Source of the DNA: Microcystis aeruginosa NIES-2549
GTDB lineage: Bacteria; Cyanobacteriota; Cyanobacteriia; Cyanobacteriales; Microcystaceae
DNA: 32,000 bases
Reading direction: 5' to 3'
Assembly (NCBI RefSeq): GCF_000981785.2
Contig: NZ_CP011304.1
Coordinates: 300,001-332,000, forward strand
The notes under the pieces are model-generated. The model saw only the letters and a list, made by a program, of their open reading frames with translations. It was not told where the DNA came from and did no database searches. Position 1 is the first letter of the stretch; the number at the start of each line of letters is the position of its first letter. The position numbers and the translations under genes were made by a program. This document shows positions 9,129 to 25,667 of this stretch, piece after piece.

Positions 9129-9180
9129 TTCTCCCTTCTCCCCCTCTCCCCCTCCCTTCTCCCCAATTCATAATTCATAC
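9129..9180. repeat. Polypyrimidine 7-nt periodic tract (YYCTCCC) followed by (AATTCAT)x2
   Basis: Read directly from the sequence: ttctccc cctctcc ccctccc ttctccc, then aattcat aattcat. Confidence 0.8.
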
Positions 9181-9573
9181 TTTGTGCTTTTTGTCAAAAC
9201 AACTTTTTCTTTGTAATAAAACTAAACAAAAAAAAGATCATCGTTGTGGGTGAAATTGACTAATTTACCCGTCTTAATTAGGATTACCTTGTAGGTGTGG
9301 CAAGGGTTTCAACCCTTGCCACCCAAAAAAGCACAGAATAACCCACTATGAAATTCTATCAAATCGCTGTAACCATTGTAAAATCGTTGTTAAATAAAAA
9401 TCTTTCTCAATTAATTCTTAAGAATTTATAAATATTGCGGAATGTTAATTTAAATATTCTCAAGTTTTTTGGGTCAATATATAACTTTTGCTTATCTTTG
9501 GCAAACATTGGGTTAGAAGTCAGAAGTCGGGAGTCAGAAGTCAGTATTCAGGAAACAGGAGATTATTTTTATG
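9175..9573 (+). repeat. Copy 1 of a ~400-bp dispersed non-coding element, ending in AGGAG-N9-ATG
   Basis: Aligns end to end with 13689-14112. By eye roughly nine of ten positions are identical, and copy 2 carries a ~40-nt insertion. Contents: a 12-bp-stem hairpin gtggcaagggtt/aacccttgccac (intact in this copy only), a perfect 14-bp palindrome AATTCTTAAGAATT (9413-9426), an AGAAGTC-type heptamer array (9515-9560), and caggagattatttttATG. Confidence 0.9.
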
Positions 9574-9702: not shown

Positions 9703-10392
9703 ATGACCGGCAACCACTACCAAACCTTAGAAATTAGCCATAAATCGACCCCTGAGGAGATTAAACGGGCTTATCGGCGTTTAGCCAGACAATTCCATCC
9801 CGATAGTCAAAACGATAGTGCCAGTCACGATAAAATCGTCGCTATTAACGCCGCCTACGAGATTTTAAGCGATCCGAGACTAAGAAAGGACTACGATAAC
9901 CAACTAATCGCCAATTCTCCCGAAAAACGCGCCCAACGCACCGCCACCGCCCAAGCAAATTATCATCGTTACAAAGAAACGGTCCAGGAAGACGAGGCCC
10001 TAGTCAAACAGTGGTATAACCAGACCTATAGCCCGATTAATCGCCTGATCGGTCAAATTATCCGGCCCCTCAAAGGTCAGATCGATCACCTATCCGCGGA
10101 TCCCTTCGATGATCGGTTAATGGCTGTTTTTCAAGACTATCTAGAAACCTGTCGCCAAAATCTCGATCGAGCCAAAACCCTCTTTTCCCAACGGCCTAAT
10201 CCTGCCAAAATGGCTAAAGTGGCCGCTTCTCTCTACTACTGTCTCAATCATCTCACTGACGGACTAGAAGAATTAGAAACCTTTACCCTTAACTACGATG
10301 ATCGCTCTCTCCACACTGGTCAAGAAATGTTTCGTATGGCCCAGCGTTTACAGGTAGAAGCTAAACAGATAGCCAGTCAGTGCCAAAATTAA
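9703..10392 (+). CDS. J-domain (DnaJ-like) protein with an uncharacterised C-terminal domain
   Basis: The N-terminal YQTLEISHKSTPEEIKRAYRRLARQFHPDSQ...AYEILSDPRLRKDYD is a canonical J domain with the HPD tripeptide. It has no Gly/Phe region or zinc finger. Confidence 0.8.
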   Translation: MTGNHYQTLEISHKSTPEEIKRAYRRLARQFHPDSQNDSASHDKIVAINAAYEILSDPRLRKDYDNQLIANSPEKRAQRTATAQANYHRYKETVQEDEALVKQWYNQTYSPINRLIGQIIRPLKGQIDHLSADPFDDRLMAVFQDYLETCRQNLDRAKTLFSQRPNPAKMAKVAASLYYCLNHLTDGLEELETFTLNYDDRSLHTGQEMFRMAQRLQVEAKQIASQCQN

Positions 10393-10466
10393 ATCTCTAG
10401 CCATGGGCAAAAAAAAAGACGAAAATAGATCAGGACTAGATTTACCCAATCCCTAGCTTAACCCCG

Positions 10467-11078
10467 ATGAGAGACAAACAATCAGAAATTACCAATATAT
10501 CCACCCCTAGAGATTCTGATCTTTATTCCTTGCCTCCCGCCGTCCAACGGGCTGCTAATATCCTTTTACGTCAGGGAAGAATCGGTTTTTGGACGCAGAT
10601 TGTCCTAGGCGTAATTTCAGGGGTTTTATTACTCATTGCTACCGCTAGTTTATTAGGGACGAGACAACGCACTTCCGGTATTGAAATCGGTGTTTTATGT
10701 GCCATTGGTGGGGCTGGTTTCTTGGTGGTTGCCATTTTCTTTTCCTCTCGTTACATGAAAATCGCCCGTCAAATGTTGAGGGGTGATCAAGATAGTCGCC
10801 CGAAAAAATCCGATACTATTCAATTAATCCGTCAGGGTTTAATCGCTAATATTATCGGGATGTTTTTAACGATTTTGGGAGCGCAAGCCTTGGCGGGAAT
10901 CGTCTTAATTAAATCCCTCAATGTTCCCCAAGGTACTTTTAATGTTGCCTCTAACCCCAGTCAATTTGTTAATTCTGTTGACCTGTTAATTGTGCAGGCT
11001 AATACTAATACAATTCTCGCTCACTTTACTGGTATTGTTACCTCTTTGTGGCTTCTTAATCGTATTACTTCTAAATAA
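10467..11078 (+). CDS. Conserved cyanobacterial/plastid-type membrane protein (DUF3611-like, about 4 TM)
   Basis: 203-aa ORF with four hydrophobic segments. The family assignment is from memory of the sequence pattern and has not been verified. Confidence 0.5.
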   Translation: MRDKQSEITNISTPRDSDLYSLPPAVQRAANILLRQGRIGFWTQIVLGVISGVLLLIATASLLGTRQRTSGIEIGVLCAIGGAGFLVVAIFFSSRYMKIARQMLRGDQDSRPKKSDTIQLIRQGLIANIIGMFLTILGAQALAGIVLIKSLNVPQGTFNVASNPSQFVNSVDLLIVQANTNTILAHFTGIVTSLWLLNRITSK

Positions 11079-11080
11079 AT

Positions 11081-11422
11081 ATGACCATGCAACGCACCCG
11101 TTTAAGTACGCTGGCTAATGTCACCAGCAGTCGATTTAATAGCTTTTTTGGTAATCCTTGGCGGCGGATTTCCCTCCAGATAATTTGTGTTTTATTTGGA
11201 GTTTTTTCTGGTCAAGCAATTGTCACTACTGCTGGTCAAACTGCTCAATGGGATGTCACCGCTGCCGGTTTATTGCTGCTGTTTACGGAGGCGACTAGCC
11301 GGATTGTTTATCGAAAAAGTTCCCAGGCTAAACCAGCACCGATTCTGCGAGAATCTCTCAATTTACTAAAAATTGGTATCACCTATAGTTTATTTCTAGA
11401 AGCCTTTAAAATTGGCTCTTAA
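11081..11422 (+). CDS. Ycf20-like (DUF565) small membrane protein
   Basis: 113 aa, starting 2 nt after the upstream stop. Two TM segments flank GQTAQWDVTAAGLLLLFTE, which resembles the Ycf20 GQTGDWD core. Confidence 0.5.
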   Translation: MTMQRTRLSTLANVTSSRFNSFFGNPWRRISLQIICVLFGVFSGQAIVTTAGQTAQWDVTAAGLLLLFTEATSRIVYRKSSQAKPAPILRESLNLLKIGITYSLFLEAFKIGS

Positions 11423-11513
11423 ATCCCCAATTGAAAAATGAAACGCACAACTCCTTAAGAGTTGACAGAGAAAGTCTCATCAGGTTTTGTCCGATTAATA
11501 CAACAACAACTAA

Positions 11514-11897
11514 CATAGAACCAAGAAACTTGCTCTACCAACTTGGCCAAGAGGGAAATTTATTGACTATAAACTACAGAATAAAGGCGGTTTATTGATG
11601 GAGATTGATAGATTTTTCCCTAGCTCTAAAACCTGTTCTTATTGTCTCTATCAAATGTTTGATATGCCGTTAGAAGTTAGAAAATGGACTTGTCCAAGCT
11701 ATGGTACACATCACGATAGAGACGAAAATGCAGCTAAAAAAATAAGAGCAGAAGGCATCAGACAATTATTGGTCTCAGGAACTCGGACCACTGCTCAAAG
11801 AGGAGAAGTAAGTCAAAAAGGTGGATGTAAATCTGTCTTGAGGCATTCCCCTGTAAATTCCGAAGTCTTGACAACTGCGCCTAGGGAGTCGAGGTAG
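11514..11897 (+). pseudogene. tnpB: 3' relic of an IS200/IS605-family tnpB (RNA-guided nuclease) gene
   Basis: The in-frame translation from 11514 reads ..PTWPRGKFIDYKLQNKGGLLMEIDRFFPSSKTCSYCLYQMFDMPLEVRKWTCPSYGTHHDRDENAAKKIRAEG... This is the C-terminal RuvC-III/zinc-ribbon region of TnpB. The N-terminal ~270 aa are missing, and the second CxxC is degraded to CPSYG. Confidence 0.75.
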
Positions 11898-11903
11898 TTC
11901 ACT

Positions 11904-13451
11904 ATGTTTCAAAATAGCTCTAGTAAAGTCAATATTCTCCCCATGGACGAACATAATCAAAAATTAGTTAATTATGTTCATCCCGCCGATTGGGTCAATC
12001 CACAACCCCAGGATTGTTATGATTTAGTCGTCATCGGTGCGGGTACTGCGGGTTTAGTCGTAGCGGCGGGGGCGGCGGGTTTAGATATAGGTTTAAAAGT
12101 GGCTTTAGTGGAAAAACACTTAATGGGGGGAGATTGCCTCAATTTCGGTTGTATTCCTTCTAAATGTCTGATTCGTTCCTCTAGAATTATCGGGGAAATT
12201 GAGAAAGCCAAAAAATTAGGAATTGATATTGGGGATACTAGGGTAGATTTTGCCAGAGTCATGACCAGAATGCGGCAAATTCGCGCCGATATTAGCCATA
12301 ATGATTCGGTGCAACGTTTCCAAAAACTAGGTATCGATGTCTTCTTGGGTAGCGCTCGTTTTTTAGGACAAAATGCCGTGGCAGTGGCGGGAAAAACCCT
12401 CGCTTATAAAAAAGCCGTCATTGCCACTGGTACTAGGGCCCTTCATCCCGATATCCCCGGACTAAAAGAAGCGGGATTTTATACCAATGAAACAATTTTT
12501 TCCCTCACAGAATTACCTCCTCGATTAGCTATTATCGGTGGCGGGCCGATTGGTTGTGAATTAGCTCAAGCTTTTCAACGGTTAGGCACGCAAGTGACTT
12601 TATTTCATAATCATTCCCATCTGTTGAATAAAGAAGACCCAGAAGCAGCCGCAATTATTGAGCATACTTTCCTGCGGGAAGGAATGCAGTTGATTCTCTG
12701 CTGCCAAATTGAACGGGTGAGAAAAAATGAGCGGGGTAAAACCATTGAATATACTAGCAACGGTCAAGGAGCAACTATCACCGTTGATGAGATTTTAGTC
12801 GCTGCCGGCCGGGGGCCTAATCTGTCAGGATTAAATTTAGAAGCAGTGGCCGTGGAATACGATACTCGTCGGGGAGTCAAAGTTAATGATTATCTGCAAA
12901 CTACTAACCCGAAAATTTATGCGGCCGGTGATATCTGTATGGATTGGAAATTTACCCATGCTGCCGATGCAGCCGCCCGTATTGTGATTAAAAATACCCT
13001 CTTTTCTCCCTTCGGTTTCGGACGCTATAAGCTCAGTAATTTAGTTATGCCTTGGGTCACTTATACTGACCCAGAAATCGCCCATGTGGGCATGGATGAA
13101 ACCCAGGCACAAGCCCGGGGATTGGCCACTAATACTATTAAAATTCCTTTTAGTATAGTCGATCGAGCTATCGCTGATGGCGAAACGGACGGTTTTTTAA
13201 AAATTATTCACAAACAAGGTTCCGACCAAATTTTAGGAGCCACTATCGTCGCCACCCACGCCGGTGAGATGATTTCTGAAATTACCACCGCTATGGTTGC
13301 TAAAATCGGACTGAGTAAACTCTCTATTGTTATTCATCCCTACCCCACCCAAGCGGAAGCGATTAAAAAGGCCGCCGATGCCTATCGTCGAACTCTCTTG
13401 ACTCCTAATAGTAAAAAATTCTTGGAATTGTTGACTAAATTATCCCGTTAA
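11904..13451 (+). CDS. FAD-dependent pyridine nucleotide-disulfide oxidoreductase (dihydrolipoyl dehydrogenase / mercuric-reductase-like family)
   Basis: Contains GAGTAG (FAD), the redox-active GGDCLNFGCIPSK motif, GGGPIGCELAQ (NAD(P)H), and a C-terminal dimerisation HPYPTQAEA. It lacks the C-terminal Cys-Cys pair of true MerA, so mercuric reductase activity is doubtful. Confidence 0.8.
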   Translation: MFQNSSSKVNILPMDEHNQKLVNYVHPADWVNPQPQDCYDLVVIGAGTAGLVVAAGAAGLDIGLKVALVEKHLMGGDCLNFGCIPSKCLIRSSRIIGEIEKAKKLGIDIGDTRVDFARVMTRMRQIRADISHNDSVQRFQKLGIDVFLGSARFLGQNAVAVAGKTLAYKKAVIATGTRALHPDIPGLKEAGFYTNETIFSLTELPPRLAIIGGGPIGCELAQAFQRLGTQVTLFHNHSHLLNKEDPEAAAIIEHTFLREGMQLILCCQIERVRKNERGKTIEYTSNGQGATITVDEILVAAGRGPNLSGLNLEAVAVEYDTRRGVKVNDYLQTTNPKIYAAGDICMDWKFTHAADAAARIVIKNTLFSPFGFGRYKLSNLVMPWVTYTDPEIAHVGMDETQAQARGLATNTIKIPFSIVDRAIADGETDGFLKIIHKQGSDQILGATIVATHAGEMISEITTAMVAKIGLSKLSIVIHPYPTQAEAIKKAADAYRRTLLTPNSKKFLELLTKLSR

Positions 13452-13453
13452 AA

Positions 13454-13503
13454 TCAGTTATAAGTTATCAGTTATCAGTTATCAGATGTGAGTTATCAGT
13501 TTA
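13454..13503. repeat. Heptanucleotide STRR array (TCAGTTA = TTATCAG family), ~7 units
   Basis: Direct reading. It starts 3 nt after the stop of the oxidoreductase gene. Confidence 0.9.
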
Positions 13504-13544
13504 CAAGGGACGAATCTAAAACCTTTGACTCTTGCCTTCAGAAG

Positions 13545-13626
13545 CTGATTACTGTTTACTATCCACTGAAAAAACTTCCATCAACAGTGTCTCACTGATT
13601 ACTGTTTACTGTTTACTGATTACTGG
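13545..13626. repeat. Two blocks of heptanucleotide repeats (TGATTAC/TGTTTAC)
   Basis: ctgattactgtttact occurs at 13545 and again at 13595, followed by gtttactgattactgg. Confidence 0.85.
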
Positions 13627-13688
13627 AAAAGCTTCCCAACTCCCACTCGGCAATAACTACTGGCAGCCAGAAATACGTTGGCTACATA

Positions 13689-14112
13689 TCATACTTTATG
13701 CTTTTTGTCAAAAAAACTTTTTCTTTGCAATAAAACTACACAAAAAAAAGATCATCGTTGTGGGTGAAATTGACTGATTTACCCGTTTTAATTAGGATCA
13801 TCTTGTAGGTGTGGCAAGGGTTTCAACCATTGCTGCTCAAAAAAGCACAGAATAACCCACTATGAAATTCTATCAAATCGCTGTAACTATTACAACATCG
13901 TTGTTAAATAAAAATCTTTCTCAATTAATTCTTAAGAATTTGTAAATATTGCGAAATGTTAATTTAAATATTCTCAAGTTTTTGGAGTCAATATATAATT
14001 TTTGCTTATCTTTTTTGAAAAATACAACTCCTGCAAAAATCCAACATCTACCATTGGGTTAGAATTCAGAAGTCAGGAGACAGAATTCAGGAGTCAGGAG
14101 ATTATTTTTATG
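13689..14112 (+). repeat. Copy 2 of the ~400-bp dispersed element, ending in AGGAG-N9-ATG
   Basis: Collinear with 9175-9573. The palindrome AATTCTTAAGAATT is conserved (13927-13940), the hairpin is degraded (gtggcaagggtttcaaccattgctgc), and there is a ~40-nt insertion before the heptamer array (14061-14102). The ATG at 14110 opens only a 13-codon ORF. Confidence 0.9.
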
Positions 14113-14248
14113 GTTCTTCGTTACTTGGTATGGTTTGATCGGGTGGCATAAATCGACTAAATCCTTATCTGGCAAGAGACTTAATTGATTAGTTCGTTCT
14201 AGATAGAAAACAATTGACAAAAATTGCATAGCACCAACCGAAGAACCA

Positions 14249-14292
14249 TTCATAATTCATAATTCATAATTCATAATTCATAATTCATAATT
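14249..14292. repeat. Heptanucleotide STRR array (TTCATAA) x6
   Basis: Direct reading. It is the same heptamer family as the AATTCAT x2 units at 9165-9179 and ends 12 nt before the ATG at 14304. Confidence 0.95.
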
Positions 14293-14303
14293 CCCCACTT
14301 CTT

Positions 14304-15638
14304 ATGAGAGATTCCATGTCGGGCTATCTAAGAGTACAACAACACTGCCTCAATCAAGTTAAATTAGCCGTGAAAAAGCAGGGCTTTAGCAGTCAACGTT
14401 CCTTAGCTAAAGAAGCTGAATTTAGTCTGGCTATTGTCAGTAACTTCCTGACTGGTAAACCAGTAGAACAAGCCACTTTTGCACAAATTTGTCGTCGATT
14501 ATGCCTCGACTGGCAAGAAATAGCCGCCCTGAATTTTCAGCTAACAGCACCCCCTCAAGACAAAATTCCGGGTAATTCTGCATCCAAGAGCGAAAAATTG
14601 GACACATTACCCCCCTATCCCAATGGGGCAGTTCCCCTTGGTTCCCCATTTTATTTAGAACGTCTTCCCCTCGAAGAACAGATAAGGCAGGAAATCAAGA
14701 AACCGGGGGCTTTAGTGCGGATAAAAGCCCCGAAAGAAATGGGCAAAACTTCCCTACTTTTGAGAATGCTCGATTTTGCCAAACAGCAAGGCTACCGCAC
14801 GGTGAGTTTGAACTTAGAACAGGTGGACCAGGCGATTTTGGCTGATTTAAACCAATTTTTGCGCTGGTTGTGTGCCAATGCCGCCCGTCAACTACAGTTA
14901 AAACCACAATTAGATGAGTATTGGGATGAGGATTTAGGCAGCAAGATTAGCTGTACGGTTTACATTCAAGACTATCTCCTGGAATCGATTACCGCCCCCA
15001 TTGTCCTCGCTCTCGATGAACTTAATCAGATGTTTGAACATCCCCAAGTGGCCAAGGATTTTTTACCGCTGCTGCGTTCTTGGTACGAGGAAGCCAAAAC
15101 CCTACCTATCTGGCAAAAACTCCGTCTTATCGTTGTCCATTCCACGGAAATTTATGTTCCCCTGCAGCTCAATCAATCCCCCTTTAACGTCGGATTTCCC
15201 GCACAGCTAAGTCATTTTAGTCTTGAGGAAGTATTGCAATTAGCCCAACGTTATCAACTCACCTGGGAAAATCAGGAAAAAGTCAAACAATTGATGGAGT
15301 TAGTGGGAGGACACCCAGCTTTGGTACAAACTGCCCTCTACTATCTCAGTCGGGAGGAAATAACCATGACGCAAATATTAACCAGTGCCACCTCCGTCAC
15401 GGGGATTTATGCCCATCACCTGCGGCGCCATTGGGCGGTATTAGAACAACAGCCTGAACTAGCAAAAGCCCTCGATCGGGTGATGAGCGCCGTGGAACCC
15501 ATACAATTAGACCCAATTCTCGCTTACAAACTCAGCAGTATGGGGCTACTCAAACAATCGGGAGATAAAGTAGTACCCGGCTATGAATTGTATCGACGCT
15601 ATTTTTTAGAGGTGAAATCCTCTATCAGTTATCAGTAA
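14304..15638 (+). CDS. HTH-domain plus AAA-like (AAA_35 / PF14516-type) P-loop NTPase
   Basis: 444 aa. The N-terminal ~75 aa are XRE-like HTH (SQRSLAKEAEFSLAIVSNFLTGKPVEQATFAQICRRLCLDWQEIA). From ~aa 103: GAVPLGSPFYLERL...IKAPKEMGKTSLLLRM (Walker A) ...PIVLALDELN (Walker B) ...SPFNVGFPAQLSHFSLEE...ELYRRYF. This is collinear with the C-terminal 370 aa of the 2050-aa protein downstream. Confidence 0.75.
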   Translation: MRDSMSGYLRVQQHCLNQVKLAVKKQGFSSQRSLAKEAEFSLAIVSNFLTGKPVEQATFAQICRRLCLDWQEIAALNFQLTAPPQDKIPGNSASKSEKLDTLPPYPNGAVPLGSPFYLERLPLEEQIRQEIKKPGALVRIKAPKEMGKTSLLLRMLDFAKQQGYRTVSLNLEQVDQAILADLNQFLRWLCANAARQLQLKPQLDEYWDEDLGSKISCTVYIQDYLLESITAPIVLALDELNQMFEHPQVAKDFLPLLRSWYEEAKTLPIWQKLRLIVVHSTEIYVPLQLNQSPFNVGFPAQLSHFSLEEVLQLAQRYQLTWENQEKVKQLMELVGGHPALVQTALYYLSREEITMTQILTSATSVTGIYAHHLRRHWAVLEQQPELAKALDRVMSAVEPIQLDPILAYKLSSMGLLKQSGDKVVPGYELYRRYFLEVKSSISYQ

Positions 15639-15656
15639 ACAGTTATCAGTTATCAG
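15622..15656. repeat. Heptanucleotide STRR array (TTATCAG family) overlapping the stop codon of the AAA_35 gene
   Basis: ctatcag ttatcag taaacag ttatcag ttatcag. The TAA stop (15636-15638) lies in the third unit. Confidence 0.9.
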
Positions 15657-15741
15657 TGAGGGTGTGGGAAGTGGCGAGAACAAAGCTGCCTTCTGCATGA
15701 GTGCCTTTTGAACCTAGTAAATCAATTTTGTATGATTACTT

Positions 15742-17574
15742 ATGAATAGGTCAATCAAAGATACTGTCCAAAATACTGTCAACGTTAGGAATTTTAGTCG
15801 CTCGCAACTAGGTCAACCGGATGAGAACAATTTATATCAAGCAGTAGCCACAGTTACCGAGGGACATTGGCCAGAAAATCTTTCGGGATACGTTTTTATC
15901 GTCTGTCCTTTTCATCGAAAAAATGACCGTCATTTGTTCTCTGGCGAGGGTGTAATTATTAGATGGGACTTGCAAGGGAAAAATAATCAAGTTAACGTTT
16001 ACAGTAAAAAACTAAAAACTTGGGATAGTTTTTGGCGAAAAGTTTTACCAATATTTAATATTAGTCGAGCCAATTTTCCCGCCGTGATCAGCATTTTAGG
16101 TGCTTCGGAAATAGCGAATACTGCTATGGTTAAACTAGAAAAAGTTGCCGAAGATAAACAACTAGAAGAAACCAGATTAATTCTCACCGCCGATGCTGGA
16201 CGTTACTGGGAAGTGGATCCCGTTTCCCTTGACACTATCACCCCGATTGGTTATTTTGACCAACATATTGTTTCGGTGCCTTTATCTTTTTTACCAGTCC
16301 TAGAAAATACCGCTCACCCCTTCTACGACAAAAAGACCCAAGAATTTATCACCTGTGAATTAAAGCTAAAACTTGTATCGGGTGGTATGTTAAAAGATTT
16401 AGATAAATCGGTGTATATTGTTCTTTGGGATCAACAAAAAAAACTTAAACCCTGGAAACTACAGGGAAGTATCCTCGATGGTAGCCCCCATTCGGTCATC
16501 GTCACCGAAGATTATATCATGATTCCCGATATGCCCTTTCAGATGGGAGTAGCCAAACTATTAGGTATCAGAATTAAGCCTGAAGAAACCTATCCGAAAA
16601 CTCAAATTTATCTGGTTAACCGTCAAGATCTCAAGGAAGAAGAAACCACCGTTCCCTCGCGATTAATTACCTTCAATGGCGACAGTTATCACTTCCTTTG
16701 TAGTTACTATAGTACCAACGGTCAAATTCAGCTTGTGGCCATCCAAAATGCCACTATTAGTTTAACCGAAGCGATCGAAAAAGACGATATCCAACATTTT
16801 ACTGGTCAGGGTTATCCCCCCGAATACCACGGCATTCCTTGGATGTTTTCCTTTGACCCCGGAGTGCTACGCAAAGTGGTTATCGAAGATGCCAGGGTGA
16901 TGAGCGAACAAGCTTTCATCCATCCGGGTTGGTTCTGTACCAGTCTCTACACCGCCGACCCGAGGGAATCGGAACAGGGGTACAGTGCCATTTATCAAAT
17001 TTATCTCGGTTATGTGCGCGAATTAATCTGTCGTCGTCAGTATATGGATTTTCGCGACCAGAGTAATCGCATCCTCAGGGATGCCGAACTTCCCTGTCAT
17101 GACTTGCCCTCGGTATTAGCCAAGGTTCCCTTCGATAGAGATTGGAATCAGTTAAGTCAACAGATTAGCCAAGAAAAAAATGCCAGTGATACTCATGTAT
17201 CACATTTAGGTCGGGGACTACTGGATTTTTATGTTTGTCCCGATGGCTATATTTTAGATAGCATTCAGTTTATTCCCCAAGAACAGGGCTATCTATTGAC
17301 GACGGTTTTAACCCCGACCAAAGTATTAGAAGCTTGGTTATTTAACCCTGACAATCTCAAGGACGGACCGATTGCTAAACTGAGTTTGCCAGAAGATGTT
17401 CACTTTGGTTTTACCTTGCATTCCGAGTATTTCGAGCAGGTGCTGCCTTCTCCCCGTCCTTCCGTCTCACAGGTAAATCAAGTCCTGTCAGCCTTGCGGA
17501 GTCTTGTTTTAGTTCCCGTAGAATTTTTCTTGGGGAGACCCGCAGCCGTTTACAATCGCCGAGTAAAAAAATGA
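15742..17574 (+). CDS. Divergent carotenoid oxygenase (CCD/RPE65/lignostilbene dioxygenase) family protein
   Basis: 610 aa. Collinear CCD landmarks: [30 protein letters not shown] (cf. G.IP..L.G...RNGP..H.FDGDGM), [29 protein letters not shown]. Four candidate iron-ligand His are present in the expected motifs: [34 protein letters not shown] and GFTLHSEYF. The stop overlaps the next gene's start (ATGA at 17571-17574). Confidence 0.65.
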
Positions 17575-20500
17575 TTGTTCTCAAAGGATACGACATTCTT
17601 ACCCAGGTTTACGAAAGCGTTAACTCAGAAGTCTATCGGGCGATTCGCACCGCCGATAATCAACCGGTTATCCTCAAAATCCTCAAGCAAGAATATCCCA
17701 CCGCCCAAGAACTAACCCACTACAAACAGGAGTATAAAACCATCTGCGGTCTGAACTTCGAGGGGGCGATTAAAGCCTATGGTTTAGAAACCTACCGCAG
17801 AACTCCCGTGATTATTTTGGAAGATTTCGGTGGTATATCCTTAAAAAAATGGCTAGGGGGCAAACCTCTGCCCTTAAGGGACTTTTTGAGCCTTACACTC
17901 CGAATAGTGGCTAATTTAGAGAAAATTCACAACGCCAAGGTTATTCACAAAGATATTAATCCTGCCAATATAGTTCTTAACCCCGAAACCGGACAGATTA
18001 AAATCATCGATTTTGGCATTGCCAGCGTCCTGCGGCGGGAAAATCCCGGGCTAAAAAATCCCAACGTCCTGGAGGGGACTTTAGCCTATATTTCTCCCGA
18101 ACAAACCGGACGGATGAATCGCAGTCTCGATTACCGCACGGATTTTTATTCCTTGGGCGTTAGCTTCTACGAACTTCTCACCGGACAATTACCTTTTCGG
18201 GCTAACGATGCTTTGGAATTAGTTCACTGTCATCTGGCAAAACAACCTTTGGAGATTAATAGTCTCGTCAGGGAGGAAATTCCCCCAGTGGTGGAGGCAA
18301 TCATCATGAAACTGATGGCTAAAACCCCCGAGGAACGATACCAAAGTGCCTACGGTATTCGGGCAGATTTAGAAGAATGTTTAAGACAACTAGAAAAAAC
18401 GGCTAAAATTGATGATTTTGTTATCGCTAGGCAAGATCTAGCCAATCAGTTCCAAATTCCCCAAAAACTCTACGGCAGGGAGGCAGAAATCGCCACTCTT
18501 CTCACTGCTTTTCAACGGGTAGCCACGGCGAGTAAAAACTCCTCTCACACCGAACTGATGCTAGTTACGGGTTATTCTGGCATGGGTAAAACCACCTTGG
18601 TTAGGGAAATTTATCAGCCAATTACTGAAAAACGCGGCTTTTTTATCTCCGGTAAATTTGACCAGTTTCAGCGCGATATTCCCTATGCTGCCGTGATTAG
18701 CGCTTTGACTCATCTCGTCAAGCAACTTTTGGGGGAAAGTCTGCCACAACTGGAACTATGGCGACAAAAACTGCTCAAGTCTTTGGGGGCGAATGCACGG
18801 GTTATTATTGATGTGATTCCCCAACTAGAATTAATTATCGGTCCACAACCAGAGGTGTTACAATTAGGAGCGATCGCTACTCAAAATCGCTTTAATTTAG
18901 TCTTTAAAAATTTCATTCGGGTCTTTTGTTCCCCAGAACATCCCTTAGTCATCTTTCTCGATGATTTGCAATGGGCAGACTTGGCTAGTCTCAAGTTAAT
19001 AGAATTAATTATGCTCGATGGCGATACGGACTATTTATTTTTAATTGGCTCCTATCGCAGTAATGAAATTAATTCCACCCATCCCCTAACCGCTACCCTC
19101 GATAAATTAGAGCAGGGGGGCATAATTATCAATCAAGTTATTTTAAAACCTCTGGGGCTTGAACAGGTTAATCAGTTGATTGCTGACACCTTAAACCATT
19201 CACTGGAATATGTGCAATCTTTGTCCACTTTAGTCTGGCAAAAAACCCACGGTAATCCTTTTTTTGTCAATGAATTTCTCAAAACTATCTACTGGGAAAA
19301 TTTGCTATTTTTCCAACTGGAGCAGGAAACAACCACTAAAAGCGACAATAATAGGGGCTATTGGCAATGGCATCTCGGCCAAATTCAAAGGATTGGCAGT
19401 ACCGATAATCTGATTCAATTCATGGTCGGTAAAATGCAGAAATTACCGCACGAAACCCAGGAGGTTTTAAGTTTAGCAGCTTGTTTTGGAGCAGAGTTTA
19501 ATTTATATAGTCTGGCGGTTATCTCTGAAAAATTACCTCTAAAAATTTTACCAATTTTAACTTCTAGTAGCGAAGCTGGTTTAATTATTCCTCTCTCAGA
19601 ATTAGATGAACAATTACTGATTAAAGAATATAAATTCGCTCATGACCGCATTCAACAAGGAGCTTACGCTCTCATCGAAGACAGCAAAAAATCTTTAATT
19701 CATTTAAAAATTGGTCGCCTACTTTGGCAGCATACTTCTGTCAACGAATTATCGGAAAAAATTTTTAAAATAGTCGATCATTTCAATCTTGGTTATCAAC
19801 TAATTAGCGAGGAAAAAGAACGAGAGTTAGTGGCTAACTTGAATTTATTAGCAGCCCAAAAAGCCAAAGCCGCTAATGCCAAAACTGGAGCCTTAAAATA
19901 CATTAAAATCGCTCAAAAACTTCTCAAAAAATCAAGCTGGAAAAATAACTATCAAATGACTTTAAATATTTATTCTGAAGCCACAGAAATTGCCTATTTA
20001 AGTGGGAATTTTGAGCAGATGCAGTGCTGGGCTAATCTCGTATTAAAACAGGCAAAAACCACCCTAGATAAAATCAAAGTTTATGAAGTAATCATCGAAG
20101 CTTATCACGCCCAAAATCAAGAAATAAAAGCGGTACAAATTGGCTTATCTGTCCTAAAAAGCTTAGATTTCGAGATTCCTGAATCCTTACAATCATCAGA
20201 TATACAGGAAGAACTCACTAAAACTAGGCAAAAATTAGCGGGTAAAAATATCGAAGATTTAAGTAATTTGCCGCCGATAAATGAGGAAGAAAAATTAGCA
20301 ATAATGAAGATAGCAAGTGCTATATTTTCTCCTATTTTTATTGCCGCTCCTCATCTTTTACCCATCCTAGTATCAAAACAGGTTAACTTATCAATTGAGT
20401 ACGGCAATAGTTATCTAGCGGCTTTTACTTATGTTAATTATGGCTTAATTCTTTGTGGTCTTTTAGAAGATTGGGAAACGGGTTATCAATTTGGAAAATT

Positions 20501-23500
20501 GGCTTTAAACATTGCCGATAAATTTCATGCCAAAGCCCTGATGCCGAAAATAATTGCCGTCTTTTCCACCACTATTAGTATCTGGAAAGAACCGATTAAA
20601 AATTCCCTGTCCTTGTTAAAATCTTCCTATCAAACCGGTTTAGAAATGGGGGATCTCTACTACGGAACGATCTGCGCCTATCTTTACTGTTTTCATTCCG
20701 CTTTTATCGGACAGGAATTAACCGAATTAGCTGGAGAAATAGCTAACTATGATCTGGCTTTTGTTAAGCTCAAACAAGAAAACCCCCGCAACTATCTAAA
20801 AATCTACGGACAAACAGTTTTAAATCTGCTGGGACGCTCGGAAAATCCCGGTCTTTTAGAAGGACAATACTATCAAGAAACTGTTATGTTACCGTACCAT
20901 CTAGAGGCTAATGATCTCTATGGTCTCTGTGCTTTATTTGTCAATAAATTATACCTTTGTTATCTATTTGGACAGTACAAACAAGCCATTGAAAATGCTA
21001 ATCAAGCCCAAAATTATCTAGGAGGAGCTACCGCCACTTTCTTGATTTCTCTGCATAACTTTTATGATTCTCTCGCCCATTTAGCTATTTATAATCATCT
21101 GGACAATGACCAAAAACAGCAGGCCTTAGAACGAGTGACGAATAATCAGAAAAAGCAACAGGAATGGGCCAATCAAGCCCCCTCTAACTATCTCCATAAA
21201 TTTTATTTAGTGCAAGCGGAAAAAGACCGGGTGCAGCAATCCTATCTAGAAGCCATAGAAAACTACGATCTAGCCATCGCTAAAGCCAAGGAAAATGAAT
21301 ACATTAATGAAGAGGCACTGGCTAACGAACTAGCGGCGAAATTCTATCTCGATTGGGGTAAAGTAAAAATTGCCAAAACCTACATCAATGAAGCTGCTTA
21401 TCTCTATTCTCTTTGGGGAGCAACAGCTAAAGTCAAAGACATAGAAAGCCGCTATTCTCAGTTAATGGTCAATAATTATGGGTCCAATTCCCTGACCGAA
21501 ACTAGGAGAACTACCACCAGAAAAAATTCAGTTAGTCATTCGGGAGAACTGTTAGATTTAGCCACGATTATGAAGGCATCCCAAGCCATTTCTAGCGAGA
21601 TAGTTTTAGATCAATTACTCGCCACCCTGATGAAAATTCTCATCGAAAATGCGGGGGCGCAGCTGGGCTATCTTATCCTAGAAAGCGGCGGACAATTATC
21701 GATCGAGGCCTCCGGTTCAGTGCAGAAAGATGGGGTGACAGTCTTTAAATCTAATGCGATCAAAGAACATCTTCCCGTCTCAATTATTAACTATGTAGCC
21801 CGGAGCGGTCAAACCGTTCTTAATAACGATGCCGCCCATCAGGGCAGTTTCAGCAACGATCCCTATATTAAAACCCATCAAACCAAATCGCTGCTCTGTT
21901 CCCCCCTCCTCGACCAAGGACAACTGCGGGGAATTGTCTATCTAGAAAATAATCTCACCGTCGGGGCTTTTACCCAAGAAAGATTGGAAGTGCTGCAACT
22001 GCTCTCCAGCCAAGCAGCGATCGCAATTACTAACGCCAAACTCTACGCTGAAATCAAAGCCAAACAGAGACAACTAGCGCAATTTTTAGAAGCCATGCCG
22101 GTGGGGGTATTCGTCCTCGATGCTGGCAGTCAACCCTACTACGCCAATCAAACCGCCCAAGAGATTTTGGGAAAAGGGATAGTTAATATCACCACGGCTA
22201 ATCAGTTGGGGGAAACCTATCAGTTATATCAAGCTGGAACCGATCGATTGTATCCCACCGAAAACCAGCCGATTGTCCGGGCCTTAAGGGGGGAAAAAAA
22301 CACGGTGGATGATATAGAAGTTCACCAAGGAGAGAAGATTATTCCCCTAGGAGTGTATGCCACGCCCGTTTTTGACGAAAAAGGAGAAATTATCTATGCT
22401 ATCGCCGCTTTTACCGATATTACCGAACGAAAACAGGCGGAAGCGGAACGGATTCGCTTTACCGAAGAATTGGCCGAGTATAGCCGCACCCTAGAACAGA
22501 AAGTGCAGGAGCGCACCCTGGAACTCAGCCAAACCCTAGAAATTCTCAAGGCCACCCAAGCAGAATTACTGTTTGAAAATGAACTGCTCAGAAGTACCGA
22601 AGAATCTAGCACCTTTGACTACCAAGTGGGGGGCAGTTTACCCATGGATGCCCCCACCTACGTGGTCCGCGCCGCCGACCGTTATCTCTATAAAGCCCTC
22701 AAACGCGGCGATTTTTGCTATGTCCTCAATCCCCGTCAAATGGGCAAGTCTAGTTTAATGGTACGCATGATCGATCACCTCCAACACGAGGGTATCTGTT
22801 GCGCTCCCATTGATTTAACCCGTATCGGCAGCGAAAATGTCACTCCTGACCAATGGTACAAGGGGATAGCCTTCGAGTTAGGACGACGTTTTGGCCTGCT
22901 CAAAAGGGTCAATCTCAAAGCTTGGTGGCAAGAACGGGAAGATGTCTCGGCAGTGCAGCGCTTGGGCGAATTTATCGAAGAGGTGTTATTGCTGGAAGTG
23001 GGGATAGTGGAAGGTTCTCCCCCGAAACCGATCATAATTTTTATCGATGAAATTGATAGCGTTTTGGGCTTAAATTTCGCGGTTAATGACTTTTTTGCCC
23101 TGATTCGTTCCTGCTATAACCAGCGTGGCTTTAACCCGCTCTATCGGCGTTTGACCTTCGCTTTCTTCGGTGTTGTCACCCCCTCCGATTTAATTACCGA
23201 CCACCAAATCACTCCTTTTAATATCGGTCATTCGATTCAATTGGAGGGTTTTAAGGAACACGAAGCCCAGCCTTTACTGCGCGGATTGGCCGAGAAATTT
23301 AGTAACCCGCAAACTGTCTTAAAAGAAGTCTTTGCTTGGACAAACGGTCAACCTTTTCTAACCCAAAAACTCTGTCAGTTAATTCGCACCGCCACCTCGT
23401 CGATTCCCCCCAATGGTGAGGCCTCCTGGATTGAGGACTTGGTACAGAAGAAGATCATTGACAATTGGGAGGCTCAGGATGAACCGGAACATCTGCGGAC

Positions 23501-23723
23501 TATTCGCGATCGGCTCCTCAACAGTCATCGCTCCCAGTTGCTCCTGAGACTCTATGAACGGATTTTAAGGGAAAAGGAGGTAATTGCCGAGGATAGCCCC
23601 CCAGAAAAAGAGTTACTTTTATCGGGGTTAGTGATCAAAGATCAAGGCCGGCTGCGGGTTCATAATCCCATCTATCGGGCAATCTTTCACCTCCATTGGC
23701 TGGGTTGCAGCTCAAATTTGTAG
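17571..23723 (+). CDS. Multidomain Ser/Thr protein kinase - AAA_16 (STAND-like) ATPase - helical/TPR-like repeats - GAF - PAS - coiled coil - AAA_35 NTPase
   Basis: 2050 aa. Kinase at nt ~17589-18390 ([28 protein letters not shown]). AAA_16 has Walker [10 protein letters not shown] (aa 334-342) and Walker [12 protein letters not shown] (~aa 460). The helical repeat region spans ~nt 19700-21480. GAF is at ~21549-22058 and PAS at ~22075-22440 ([13 protein letters not shown]...[11 protein letters not shown]). A coiled coil follows at 22440-22600. AAA_35 is at 22620-23720 ([24 protein letters not shown]...[14 protein letters not shown]...IIIFIDEID...[14 protein letters not shown]...). No HisKA/HATPase module is present. 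Confidence 0.85.
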
Positions 23724-23846: not shown

Positions 23847-23898
23847 TATCATAGATAAATGAAGCTTGCTTCTATTTTCCTTTCGTAAGATTAGAGCC

Positions 23899-25578
23899 AT
23901 GAACAAAACAGATGTAATAAGTTGGAGCTATTTTAGTCATCAAAAAAAAGCTGATATTGTCAATATTTTAATAATTATTGCGATATGGACTGTGATGGTA
24001 ATTGTCGTCAATCCTTTGGGTAATTTTCCTCTTAATGATGACTGGGTTTATGGACTAGCCGTAAAATCGATTCTGGAGAAAGGTGATTTCAGCTTTCCCA
24101 GTCCAGCTCATGCTAACCTATTTTTTCAAGCCTTTTGGGGAGCCTTATTTTGCCTTCCTTTTGGATTTTCATTTACTGCATTACGCTTCTCAACTTTAAC
24201 ATTAGGATTAATCGGTGCGATTGGTACTTATGGACTGCTTAGAGAGGTTAATGCCAATCAGAAAATCTCTTTGTTGGGCGCTTTGCTGGTAGTGGTTAAT
24301 CCTCTATACTTTGGATTAGCTAACAGCTTTATGACCGACGTTCCTTTTCTGGCTTTAAGTATCCTATCTTTCTATTTTCTGATCAGGGGATTGAAGCGGG
24401 AATCAATAAGTGAAGTTATTCTGGGTCTTTGCTTAGTTTATGTCAATATTTTGATTCGCCAGTACGCAATAGTGATTCTTTTATCATTTGCCCTGGCATA
24501 CTCGTTTAAAAAAAGATTTAAAATAAAGTTTTTGTTTGCTAGTTTTGTCATATTTTCTTCAGGGATTTTACTGCATAGATTTTATCAAAACTGGCTTTAT
24601 TCTACCGGTCGCACTCGCTTAATACCAGAGAATGTGTTAAGTACACGACAATTAGATTTTCGCAACCACATTATCATGATTTCACTGATATACATAGGTT
24701 GTTTTATTTTCCCTATTATAGCGATCTTTTTCGTAAAAAAATTAAAAGAAATATCTCGCCGACAGAAAACCATAACGATCTTGAGTATATCTAGCTTTTT
24801 TGTTGTCGTGATGGGTAGATTGATTTGGCGAGGCCAAACTATGCCATTGATTGGAAATGTCCTAGCTTATTTTGGCTTAGGTCCTTTCACACTTCGATAT
24901 CCTGATCCCTTGAAGGTAAGTTATCCACCCTATTCCCTTGGTTTAAAAATATTTTGGTTGATAATCACGGCTATGGGTGTCCTTGGGGCGCTTTTATTGC
25001 TTTACTACTTATGTTTAGCAATCATTCAAACTTTTTCAGAATCGGAAAAATGGTTAAAAGTACTAATACTTTCAGCAATATTGATATATATTTTTCTTTT
25101 TGGAGTAAGTTATCCCATCGATCGTTACCTTTTGTTTCTTTTACCATTATTTATGGTGCTTTTAGTGATTTCAAATAATTATATTAACGAGCAAGATATT
25201 GGCCAAAAAATAACTGCTTTTGCCTTGACAATGACCTTTATTTGGGGCGGATTTACTATGGCGGCAACCCATGACTACTTAGCCTGGAATCGAACTCGGT
25301 GGCAGGCATTAAATGATTTGATGGAGCAGGGAGTTACTCCTGAATATATTAATGGTGGACACGAATTTAATAGCTGGTATTTAAACGATCCAAAATATCC
25401 GAGGAAGCGGGGTAAAAGTTACTGGTCGGTAAATCGTAATGACTACATGATTTCTTCTGGATTGCTCGAAGGTTATAAAGAAGTCAAACGCTATCCTTTT
25501 GCAAGATGGCTGCTTTTAAAGCAAGATAATGTTTTTGTTCTCCATAAGATTGCTGAAGATAAAACTAATGGGACTTGA
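23899..25578 (+). CDS. GT-C fold membrane glycosyltransferase (ArnT/PMT, GT39/GT83-like)
   Basis: About 13 hydrophobic segments. The first-loop acidic motif is NFPLNDDWVY, followed by a soluble C-terminal ~90 aa. The first ATG is at 23899; the track ORF opens at a TTG at 23866. It is noticeably AT-rich: I counted 18/60 and 23/60 G+C on two sampled lines, against 32/60 on a line of the next gene. Confidence 0.7.
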   Translation: MNKTDVISWSYFSHQKKADIVNILIIIAIWTVMVIVVNPLGNFPLNDDWVYGLAVKSILEKGDFSFPSPAHANLFFQAFWGALFCLPFGFSFTALRFSTLTLGLIGAIGTYGLLREVNANQKISLLGALLVVVNPLYFGLANSFMTDVPFLALSILSFYFLIRGLKRESISEVILGLCLVYVNILIRQYAIVILLSFALAYSFKKRFKIKFLFASFVIFSSGILLHRFYQNWLYSTGRTRLIPENVLSTRQLDFRNHIIMISLIYIGCFIFPIIAIFFVKKLKEISRRQKTITILSISSFFVVVMGRLIWRGQTMPLIGNVLAYFGLGPFTLRYPDPLKVSYPPYSLGLKIFWLIITAMGVLGALLLLYYLCLAIIQTFSESEKWLKVLILSAILIYIFLFGVSYPIDRYLLFLLPLFMVLLVISNNYINEQDIGQKITAFALTMTFIWGGFTMAATHDYLAWNRTRWQALNDLMEQGVTPEYINGGHEFNSWYLNDPKYPRKRGKSYWSVNRNDYMISSGLLEGYKEVKRYPFARWLLLKQDNVFVLHKIAEDKTNGT

Positions 25579-25667
25579 ACGCTCAATACAGATCAAATCG
25601 AGTATAATCGCTGCCGAGTCGGCACTTGACGTTGAGAGAGCGGCGATCAAAGAGACAACCCCGGCGG
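25569..25667 (+). repeat. 99-bp direct repeat, copy B (overlaps the last 3 codons and stop of the GT-C gene)
   Basis: See copy A. The repeat begins inside ...aatgggacttga, which is the end of the GT-C ORF. Confidence 0.9.

Follow-up and report, generated by a model that had tools for sequence, protein, structure and literature searches.

We analyzed a 32,000-nucleotide stretch of Microcystis aeruginosa NIES-2549 (contig NZ_CP011304.1, positions 300,001 to 332,000; hereafter the window) in which three consecutive same-strand genes encode P1, a small helix-turn-helix (HTH)-AAA_35 protein; P2, an enzyme of carotenoid-oxygenase fold; and P3, a giant sensor protein with kinase, AAA_16, TPR-like, GAF, PAS, and AAA_35 regions. 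Comparison with related loci revealed that this trio is one variant of a larger arrangement, a widespread sensor/HTH pair that is joined by its AAA_35 modules and brackets natural-product-type enzymes. Judging from the sequences compared, we lean slightly towards P1 and P3 being a two-protein signaling switch that flanks variable oxidative or biosynthetic cargo and most likely controls it, the cargo here being P2. The P1/P3 bracket is thus probably an undescribed switch controlling such gene cassettes. No description of the pair was found in the searchable literature, the coverage of which is incomplete. The three open reading frames (ORFs), their domains, and the ATGA shared by P2 and P3, all called in an initial annotation of the window, were confirmed by ORF coordinates, Pfam profiles, and direct reading of the sequence (Table 1).

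Pairing of P1 with the C-terminal AAA_35 module of P3

The proposed cooperation between the HTH-AAA_35 protein and the kinase's AAA_35 end, already put forward in the initial annotation, is strongly backed by co-occurrence, co-variation, and split genes. A P1-type gene was present in 18 of the 23 loci in which the kinase ends in AAA_35, versus 0 of the 41 in which it ends otherwise, namely as a His-kinase, GGDEF, SpoIIE, or cyclase protein (Fisher p = 9e-12). Neighbor-joining trees of the P1 AAA_35 and of the C-terminal AAA_35 of P3 (P3C) mirrored each other. Across 22 loci, the distance matrices of the two nucleotide-binding oligomerization domains (NODs) correlated at r = 0.92, whereas P1 compared with the kinase, AAA_16, or TPR region of the same P3 gave r = 0.50–0.59 (kinase, 0.59). 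The partial correlation between P1 and P3C given AAA_16 was 0.89, while the reverse, between P1 and AAA_16, was −0.12.

Trees built from the individual P3 domains differed in their groupings. The dioxygenase-linked kinases formed one clade in the AAA_16 and TPR trees, where AAA_35-ending kinases were scattered among the His-kinase and GGDEF types. The AAA_35 trees placed the Microcystis module with YcaO/PatG-type modules and put the dioxygenase modules of Nostoc together with a YcaO module. These groupings indicate that the sensor half of P3 follows the cargo and that the AAA_35 end follows P1. When only the dioxygenase class was considered, the P3 domains could not be told apart by distance correlations, since all of them follow species phylogeny; it is thus the between-class trees and the identity values that support tracking of the cargo by the sensor.

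Split genes place the AAA_35 module within the signaling order. Nostoc-type modules, whether they carry dioxygenase or YcaO cargo, have three genes in place of the single P3; these encode an HstK-type protein ending in HisKA/HATPase_c (~1,800 aa), a 122-aa single-domain receiver (REC) protein, and a REC-PAS-AAA_35 protein (~730 aa). REC-PAS-AAA_35 is a widespread response-regulator form and the dominant architecture among close P3C relatives in Nostocales. The AAA_35 of the split modules therefore lies downstream of a phosphorelay, in an output or transducer position, and in Microcystis and Pleurocapsales the relay is replaced by direct fusion.

Two other arrangements of these parts were observed. 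One locus (L080) splits the giant protein differently, into kinase-AAA_16-TPR and GAF-AAA_35. Another (L054:7903-9942, 9998-16096, 17002-18198) combines an HstK-type kinase that has two PAS domains with an OmpR-type response regulator that precedes it and bears Hpt and additional REC domains; a stand-alone P3-type AAA_35 protein (398 aa) is found ~0.9 kb downstream of the kinase, and there is no P1 gene. This locus may represent another wiring of the same parts.

The AAA_35 modules of P1 and P3C aligned collinearly over 305 aa (22% identity, E 2e-19) and are therefore distant members of one family rather than close paralogues. Since they are only 22% identical and belong to different subtypes, the particular closeness once proposed for them did not hold, and closeness offers no argument for a P1–P3 partnership. 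A Foldseek search with the P1 model returned Avs3, NRC4, ORC/Cdc6, Avs4, CED-4, and MalT at E 3e-7 to 6e-5, as well as NRC2 and RPP1. By this model, the P1 AAA_35 is a module of the type found in STAND (signal transduction ATPases with numerous domains) and ORC-like proteins, with a nucleotide-binding domain (NBD), a helical domain, and a winged helix. Neither module is followed by a C-terminal repeat or sensor domain; P1 ends directly after its AAA_35 and has no sensor domain of its own, and P3C sits at the extreme C-terminus. The P3 subtype is very common (9,369 representative clusters) and often stands N-terminal to long extensions, as judged from protein lengths, or is tandemly repeated.

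As a single sequence, the N-terminus of P1 is below Pfam detection and gave no match. A profile built from 14 homologues matched the XRE-type HTH of HipB (E 7e-4, positions 12–65, 54 residues), and the AlphaFold2 (AF2) model of P1 (predicted local distance difference test score, pLDDT, 77.7) displayed a bundle of four to five helices at aa 13–73 followed by a disordered linker at aa 77–109. By profile and model, this region is a Cro/C1-type (XRE-family) HTH that is predicted to bind DNA. In the AAA_35 module, Walker A reads EMGKTS and Walker B reads LALDE, with G147, K148, T149, S150, and D238 invariant in the homologue alignment. P1 has more than 4,400 homologues, which are mostly cyanobacterial and for the most part share 65–72% identity with it; the best 120 matches were nearly all full-length and 64–77% identical, with a few longer proteins at ~50%, and many were named XRE-family regulators.

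The N-terminal domain of P1-type proteins is of one of two unrelated kinds, either the XRE-type HTH or a ~85-aa type-B domain with the pattern MNLDRLLEIV...YS.GYF..VVAPELY.RLS.LIG.RVTKKN (window 14304-14615 compared with L023:6339-6620, L073:3133-3420, and L086:16059-15780(-)). The XRE HTH of the Microcystis P1 is common to YcaO/PatG-type modules. Given these two domain types, the Microcystis module looks like a chimera, in which a dioxygenase-type sensor half is joined to the P1/AAA_35 pair of another module class. The type-B domain was also considered as an HTH, a candidate that was rejected with no PDB profile match and only sub-threshold Pfam hints.

In the P3 kinase, the catalytic residues are intact and invariant in the alignment (K36, H126-K-D128, N133, and D147-F-G), and SPE is present. 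The glycine-rich loop is non-canonical, reading ESVNSEVY (conserved ESxNSxVY; aa 12–22, window 17604-17636), and nucleotide binding by this kinase may be atypical. The AAA_16 domain carries GYSGMGKTT as Walker A and FLDDLQWAD as Walker B. The corresponding motifs of P3C are RQMGKSS and IFIDEID, of which GKSS and IDEID are at least 95% conserved in the conservation profile. Pfam detected no HisKA or HATPase_c in P3, where PAS-AAA_35 holds that position. A scan of metagenomes that took the P3 N-terminus as its seed revealed that the kinase/AAA_16/TPR/GAF chassis is a general sensor platform, ending in relatives as HisKA/HATPase, a hybrid kinase with REC, SpoIIE (PP2C phosphatase), GGDEF, or cyclase-globin. 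The TPR-like region is the most variable part of P3 between cargo classes, with 28–45% identity to non-dioxygenase modules compared with 47–69% within dioxygenase modules, and the GAF-PAS-AAA_35 end is 53–63% identical between dioxygenase, YcaO, and radical-SAM modules. In two dioxygenase-linked kinases (L022, L038), the TPR-like region is 47–50% identical to that of the window, compared with 58–69% for the closest relatives, and the other domains are normally conserved; this region may be an alternative sensor allele.

Conservation of the trio and its interchangeable cargo

A P2 scan of one genome per species identified 45 loci with a P2 relative, onto which pieces of P1 and P3 were mapped. 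In all Microcystis loci, P2 is followed by P3 and P1 is located upstream wherever the contig reaches; the flanking genes vary between these genomes, with the trio intact. Outside Microcystis, the kinase was directly 3' of P2 in 21 of the 27 loci with enough downstream sequence, and 15 of these 21 had a P1-type gene within 10 kb, mostly upstream on the same strand and at times downstream or upstream on the opposite strand. The taxa with the trio include Nostoc, Mastigocoleus, Waterburya, Hyella, Xenococcaceae, Hydrococcus, and Pleurocapsa-like metagenome-assembled genomes (MAGs). Because the gene order recurs in many cyanobacterial genera, the arrangement is no chance product, and the conservation beyond this strain that the initial annotation had set as a test of its module was borne out.

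The translational coupling of P2 and P3 that had been proposed along with the module is present in the window, where the junction reads ...AAAAAATGATTG, but it is a feature of Microcystis and not of the module in general. The P2–P3 spacer outside Microcystis measures 39–422 nt, and insertions of 1.4–1.9 kb occur in two loci: one Microcystis genome carries a 1.37-kb insertion at the ATGA site between dioxygenase and kinase (L011:4316-5684), and a Hydrococcus MAG carries a 1.9-kb insertion at the same junction (L042:3558-5450).

The cargo inside the bracket varies. Seven P1 homologues, for which long contigs were the sole criterion, were sampled for genomic context, and all seven displayed a P1-like gene, then enzymes, then a ~1,900–2,080-aa protein of P3 architecture or its split form. 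The bracketed enzymes comprised PatD-like YcaO cyclodehydratases, one to three Amidohydro_2 proteins, ThcOx-type oxidases, radical SAM/SPASM proteins, and DyP-like and PhyH-like oxygenases; PatG-type proteases with precursor-like small ORFs were found on the opposite strand. YcaO cassettes are the commonest cargo. Further brackets from the metagenome scan included one with FAD monooxygenases and a nitric-oxide synthase downstream and one in which P1 and P3 are adjacent. The dioxygenase is one of several interchangeable cargoes. Since the same GAF-PAS-AAA_35 end serves YcaO and radical-SAM cassettes, the earlier suggestion that the dioxygenase makes or destroys the ligand of GAF and PAS gained no particular support, and nothing in the data bears out the link to beta-cyclocitral and grazing that was attached to it.

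P2 itself is a real but very divergent carotenoid-oxygenase-fold protein. It matched Pfam RPE65 (PF03055) over profile positions 13–467 of 469 (E 9e-25, 88.1 bits versus a cut-off of 27), and its homologues form a compact, cyanobacteria-only family of 77 clusters, all at least 46% identical. Sixteen diverse homologues share seven invariant His residues, among which H192, H250, H317, and H560 occur in iron-ligand order; H192 (TAHP), H250, and H560 (C-terminal LHS) align to ligand-His motifs of lignostilbene dioxygenases, and H317 is placed by order and motif only. The family profile matched solved dioxygenases at an E of only ~1e-4. The AF2 model is of moderate confidence (pLDDT 67.7, predicted TM score, pTM, 0.76), and the top 50 Foldseek matches to it were all carotenoid cleavage oxygenases (CCOs), the best being the Synechocystis apocarotenoid oxygenase (ACO; 5kjb, E 1.3e-17, TM 0.55/0.68), with further matches to NinaB, CAO1, NOV1, and RPE65. 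Because of these structural matches, P2 is assigned, by model comparison, the seven-bladed beta-propeller fold; together with the Pfam match and the conserved candidate His ligands, this agrees with the carotenoid-oxygenase fold of the initial annotation. P2 is like the CCOs (ACO, NinaB, RPE65, NOV1/LsdA/CAO1) in its propeller fold, in passing the RPE65 threshold, and in the order of its four invariant His residues, the putative iron ligands; it is unlike them in its low identity (10–16% in structural alignments), in being ~100–130 residues longer, and in forming its own cyanobacterial clade.

Two further ORFs were conserved in subsets of the related loci. In six Pleurocapsales dioxygenase loci, a conserved 560–620-aa gene, which does not occur in the Microcystis window, adjoins the P1-type gene. 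Its product had no Pfam match and was unrelated to P2 on comparison, which eliminated it as a second dioxygenase. The motifs RLRPE, YPGGHSA, and RDGAGMHWRTD are, we presume, reminiscent of a vanadium haloperoxidase or PAP2-type acid phosphatase. The YcaO/amidohydrolase-type brackets contain a conserved 164–211-aa ORF with no Pfam match and with no equivalent in dioxygenase modules; it could be a substrate or scaffold protein of the cassette.

The proposed switch, its rivals, and related systems

According to the reading we favor, the N-terminal half of P3 would sense a signal that switches the C-terminal STAND/ORC-like AAA_35 module of the protein, and P3C would then recruit the sensor-less P1, or template its oligomerization, much as a sensor nucleotide-binding leucine-rich repeat receptor (NLR) nucleates a helper NLR. 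Once clustered, the P1 HTH domains would bind DNA and switch the bracketed genes on or off. The sensed signal is possibly tied to the substrate, the product, or the enzyme of the cargo, with P2 perhaps its source; P2, as a predicted Fe(II) dioxygenase cleaving a C=C bond in a lipophilic substrate, would be the regulated enzyme. A more far-reaching version, which we hold to be conceivable but on balance doubtful, regards the AAA_35 modules as a new transmitter/receiver pair. A sensor-borne NTPase, either fused to kinase-STAND-GAF-PAS or placed behind a His-Asp relay as REC-PAS-AAA_35, would pass its state to a cognate HTH-AAA_35 protein by hetero-oligomerization. Such a bacterial sensor/helper-NLR transcription switch would be widely used by cyanobacteria as a cluster-situated regulator of oxidative cassettes and of cassettes resembling those for peptides that are made by ribosomes and then modified after translation (RiPPs), including those of the four-His dioxygenase clade.

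Several observations weigh against the proposed switch. Cargo regulation and contact between P3C and P1 are both inferred from comparative genomics alone. The co-occurrence counts include kin, with ~10 independent lineages left after removal of near-duplicates, and the neighbor-joining trees carry no bootstrap. Five AAA_35-type loci had no P1 in the available sequence, which for two of them (L066, L105) extends ~6–10 kb upstream of the kinase and 4–7 kb beyond its end. All eight of the dioxygenase-linked P1 proteins examined outside Microcystis carry the ~85-aa domain, with no significant HTH match. When the 250-nt stretches upstream of P1 (25 loci) and of P2 (17 loci) were searched by k-mers for a shared operator motif, only A/T-rich and start-codon-proximal words were returned. 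In addition, P2 relatives without the P1/P3 pair occur in Moorena and in a MAG of Leptolyngbya, both with complete 10-kb flanks, and in a Prochloraceae MAG for which the downstream sequence extends over 3.2 kb. A sub-clade of 576-aa P2 proteins (Allocoleopsis/Chroococcales MAGs) is preceded by an alpha/beta hydrolase gene (L025:2019-2837, L029:9024-9830); neither locus has an upstream P1-type gene, no kinase was found in the 1.0 kb downstream at L029, and L025 ends 385 nt past the gene. This suggests a different, purely metabolic setting for part of the P2 family.

Among the rival explanations, the one closest to the initial annotation is an autoinducer circuit, in which the cargo enzyme makes or destroys a small molecule bound by the GAF or PAS domain of P3, and P1 and P3 control a wider regulon and not mainly the bracketed genes. 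It would account for the tight adjacency of P2 and P3, which in Microcystis overlap at ATGA; GAF and PAS are ligand-binding folds, and the grouping of the P3 sensor half (kinase, AAA_16, TPR), to which the GAF also belongs, by cargo class fits the sensing of something cargo-specific. However, GAF-PAS is conserved at 53–63% identity across chemically unrelated cargo and it is the TPR-like region that diverges (28–45%), PAS travels with the AAA_35 output and not with the sensor in the Nostoc split, and P3 is predicted from its family to be cytoplasmic. We consider this circuit unlikely as an alternative, although it is compatible with the switch described above. More improbable still is a plain kinase–substrate relation, in which the Ser/Thr kinase of P3 phosphorylates P1, for example in its linker, with the shared AAA_35 fold incidental and no NOD–NOD assembly. 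The intact, invariant catalytic residues of the kinase and the Ser/Thr content of the disordered linker at aa 77–109 are what such a relationship would predict, yet the linker is the least conserved stretch of P1, the same kinase with other C-terminal outputs had a P1 neighbor in 0 of 41 loci, and P1 co-varies with the C-terminal AAA_35 and not with the kinase or, in the partial correlation, with AAA_16.

The trio could also be read as a STAND-based conflict or anti-phage system, whose NTPase modules would sense an invader and whose kinase and adjacent enzymes would be effectors. Avs3/Avs4 and the NLRs of plants and animals are among the best structural matches of AAA_35, the P3 kinase domain is recognized by PADLOC kinase models, PD-T4-6 and mad6 among them, and some related loci lie among transposases, integrases, and toxin-antitoxin genes. 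In a PADLOC 2.0 scan, however, P1 and P2 matched no model and the P3 matches were confined to the generic kinase domain. Moreover, the position of the effector in P1 is occupied by an HTH and not by a nuclease, TIR, or pore former, the cargo consists of biosynthetic tailoring enzymes with precursor-like ORFs, and the chassis is common to ordinary signaling proteins. Defense was dropped as the main explanation after the PADLOC scan, and we give this reading little credence; the resemblance to conflict systems noted at the outset stands at the level of fold but does not extend to a match with any known defense system.

The favored P1/P3 switch shares parts with several described systems. HstK dual Ser/Thr-His kinases, such as Pkn41/Pkn42 and Pkn30/Pkn44 of Anabaena PCC 7120, have been described, and HstK-like genes have been noted in Microcystis (PMC2442094). 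Like them, P3 has an N-terminal Ser/Thr kinase, AAA_16, TPR, and GAF, and its N-terminal part is 49–66% identical to metagenomic relatives ending in HisKA/HATPase_c; the Nostoc versions of the module use a true HstK-type protein. In P3, PAS-AAA_35 takes the place of HisKA/HATPase_c and the partner is an HTH-AAA_35 protein instead of a response regulator; P3 is not a strict HstK member because the defining His-kinase end is missing. Large Ser/Thr kinases accompany clusters of the thiazole/oxazole-modified microcin (TOMM) and nitrile hydratase leader peptide (NHLP) types, including the TOMM-system kinase/cyclase fusion TIGR03903 (Haft et al. 2010, PMC2887384). P3 resembles that fusion as a large kinase-STAND protein beside YcaO-type RiPP enzymes, and its aa 299–800 match the model (E 2.7e-30), but it has no cyclase domain, a different C-terminal end, and a dedicated partner. 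With 105 bits against a cut-off of 705.75, P3 is not a TIGR03903 member.

Regulatory pairs beside peptide clusters offer another comparison. NisK/NisR of nisin is a two-component system beside a RiPP cluster that senses its own product. The P1/P3 pair is likewise a sensor/regulator pair beside peptide-modifying enzymes, and its Nostoc form has a real His-Asp relay; it differs in that the last step would run from AAA_35 to AAA_35 instead of from His to Asp, and in that no domain of the sensor points to extracellular sensing. The pair also resembles MalT, the large ATP-binding regulators of the LuxR family (LAL), and AfsR among the Streptomyces antibiotic regulatory proteins (SARP), in combining a P-loop NOD, a winged-helix lid, and a DNA-binding domain beside biosynthetic genes. 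LAL and SARP regulators are cluster-situated. Unlike in these, sensing and DNA binding are distributed over two proteins that each possess an AAA_35 NOD, sensor repeats are missing from P1, and the P1 HTH is N-terminal and of XRE type, where the MalT/LAL/SARP regulators have LuxR or SARP types. In its proposed principle, that a signal-competent NOD nucleates a paralogous, effector-bearing NOD, the pair would be comparable to NAIP–NLRC4 and to plant sensor NLRs with their NRC helpers; this is an analogy of mechanism without sequence membership, and the effector would be an HTH.

To our knowledge, few cluster-situated regulators have been described for the natural-product genes of cyanobacteria, so the pair could be a handle for activating silent cyanobactin-like and other cassettes. 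If the proposed switch is correct, it would represent a new output type for kinase-STAND-GAF sensors and response regulators, as well as a bacterial, genetically tractable case in which one NOD protein activates its paralogue. The comparison also flags a cyanobacteria-only clade of very divergent, predicted four-His dioxygenases that includes the bloom-former Microcystis.

Layout of the locus and neighboring features

The coordinates of the features are listed in Table 1. The P2 gene is identical to a gene on the Microcystis aeruginosa chromosome CP012375.1, where it has the same neighbors.

Table 1. Coordinates of the trio, its domains, and associated features; positions are those of the window unless a locus identifier (L) of a related locus precedes them, and (-) marks the reverse strand of such a locus
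Feature	Position	Strand	Basis
P1 ORF, 444 aa, HTH-AAA_35 small partner	14304..15638	+	ORF list and Pfam
P1 N-terminal XRE/HipB-type HTH (predicted), aa 12–73	14337..14522	+	Profile match and AF2 helix bundle
P1 AAA_35 module: NBD, helical lid, winged helix	14616..15608	+	Pfam aa 105–435, 494.6 bits
P2 ORF, 610 aa, divergent carotenoid-cleavage-oxygenase fold, cargo	15742..17574	+	Pfam RPE65
ATGA, overlap of P2 stop and P3 start	17571..17574	+	Direct sequence reading
P3 ORF, 2050 aa, kinase/AAA_16/helical-TPR/GAF/PAS/AAA_35 sensor	17571..23723	+	ORF list and Pfam
P3 Ser/Thr kinase, aa 18–258	17622..18344	+	Pfam Pkinase E 1e-35
P3 AAA_16 STAND-type NTPase, aa 299–492	18465..19046	+	Pfam E 2e-42; invariant columns
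P3 helical/TPR-like sensor region	19047..21605	+	TPR_CHK1 matches in relatives
P3 GAF, aa 1346–1486	21606..22028	+	Pfam E 6.5e-16
P3 PAS, aa 1506–1622	22086..22436	+	Pfam PAS_4 E 1.6e-11
P3 C-terminal AAA_35, aa 1688–2039, output position	22632..23687	+	Pfam 117 bits
300-nt dispersed repeat upstream of the module	13689..13988		Repeat search; 93% copy at 9175-9474
103-nt repeat downstream of P3	23742..23844		Repeat search; 91% copy at 25563-25665
Short tandemly repeated repetitive (STRR) sequence ATTCATA x6.6, perfect	14248..14293		Tandem Repeats Finder (TRF); ends 10 nt before the P1 start codon
STRR TATCAGT x5, across the P1 stop codon and P1–P2 spacer	15623..15657		TRF
Nostoc-type split loci	L015, L016, L036, L066, L073 (L073:10001-15460, 15457-15825, 15829-18030)		
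560–620-aa gene of Pleurocapsales loci	L017:19523-21205(-), L023:8017-9804, L028:8093-9784, L037:19594-21456(-), L038:7502-9292, L041:5439-7136(-)		
164–211-aa ORF of YcaO/amidohydrolase-type brackets	L130:11352-11846, L131:11362-11856, L073:5279-5848, L047:14986-15612, L086:6716-7351		

Repeats flank the module on both sides, as had been annotated, but their sizes differ from those first given: the upstream element measures 300 nt and not 400 bp, and the downstream element 103 nt and not 99 bp. A related, GTCAG-rich segment of 55 nt follows each 300-nt copy at a distance of ~70 nt (9519-9573 and 14058-14112). The 103-nt direct repeats flank a PMT_2-like glycosyltransferase gene (23866-25578), which is the next gene after P3. 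In addition to the two heptamer STRR arrays in Table 1, TRF detected arrays at 13453-13501 and 13594-13625. Around P1, the heptamer STRRs form 52-nt inverted arms that are 77% complementary (13591-13642 and 15609-15660).

The neighboring genes in the window encode DnaJ, DUF3611 and DUF565 proteins, a pyridine-nucleotide disulfide oxidoreductase, the PMT_2 glycosyltransferase, and a DsbH-like thioredoxin, a list that bears out the view that the neighbors are functionally unrelated to the trio. Directly 5' of the oxidoreductase gene, a 100-aa ORF (11595-11897) has a Cas12f1-like/TnpB TNB domain as its sole match and looks like the remnant of an IS605-family TnpB gene.

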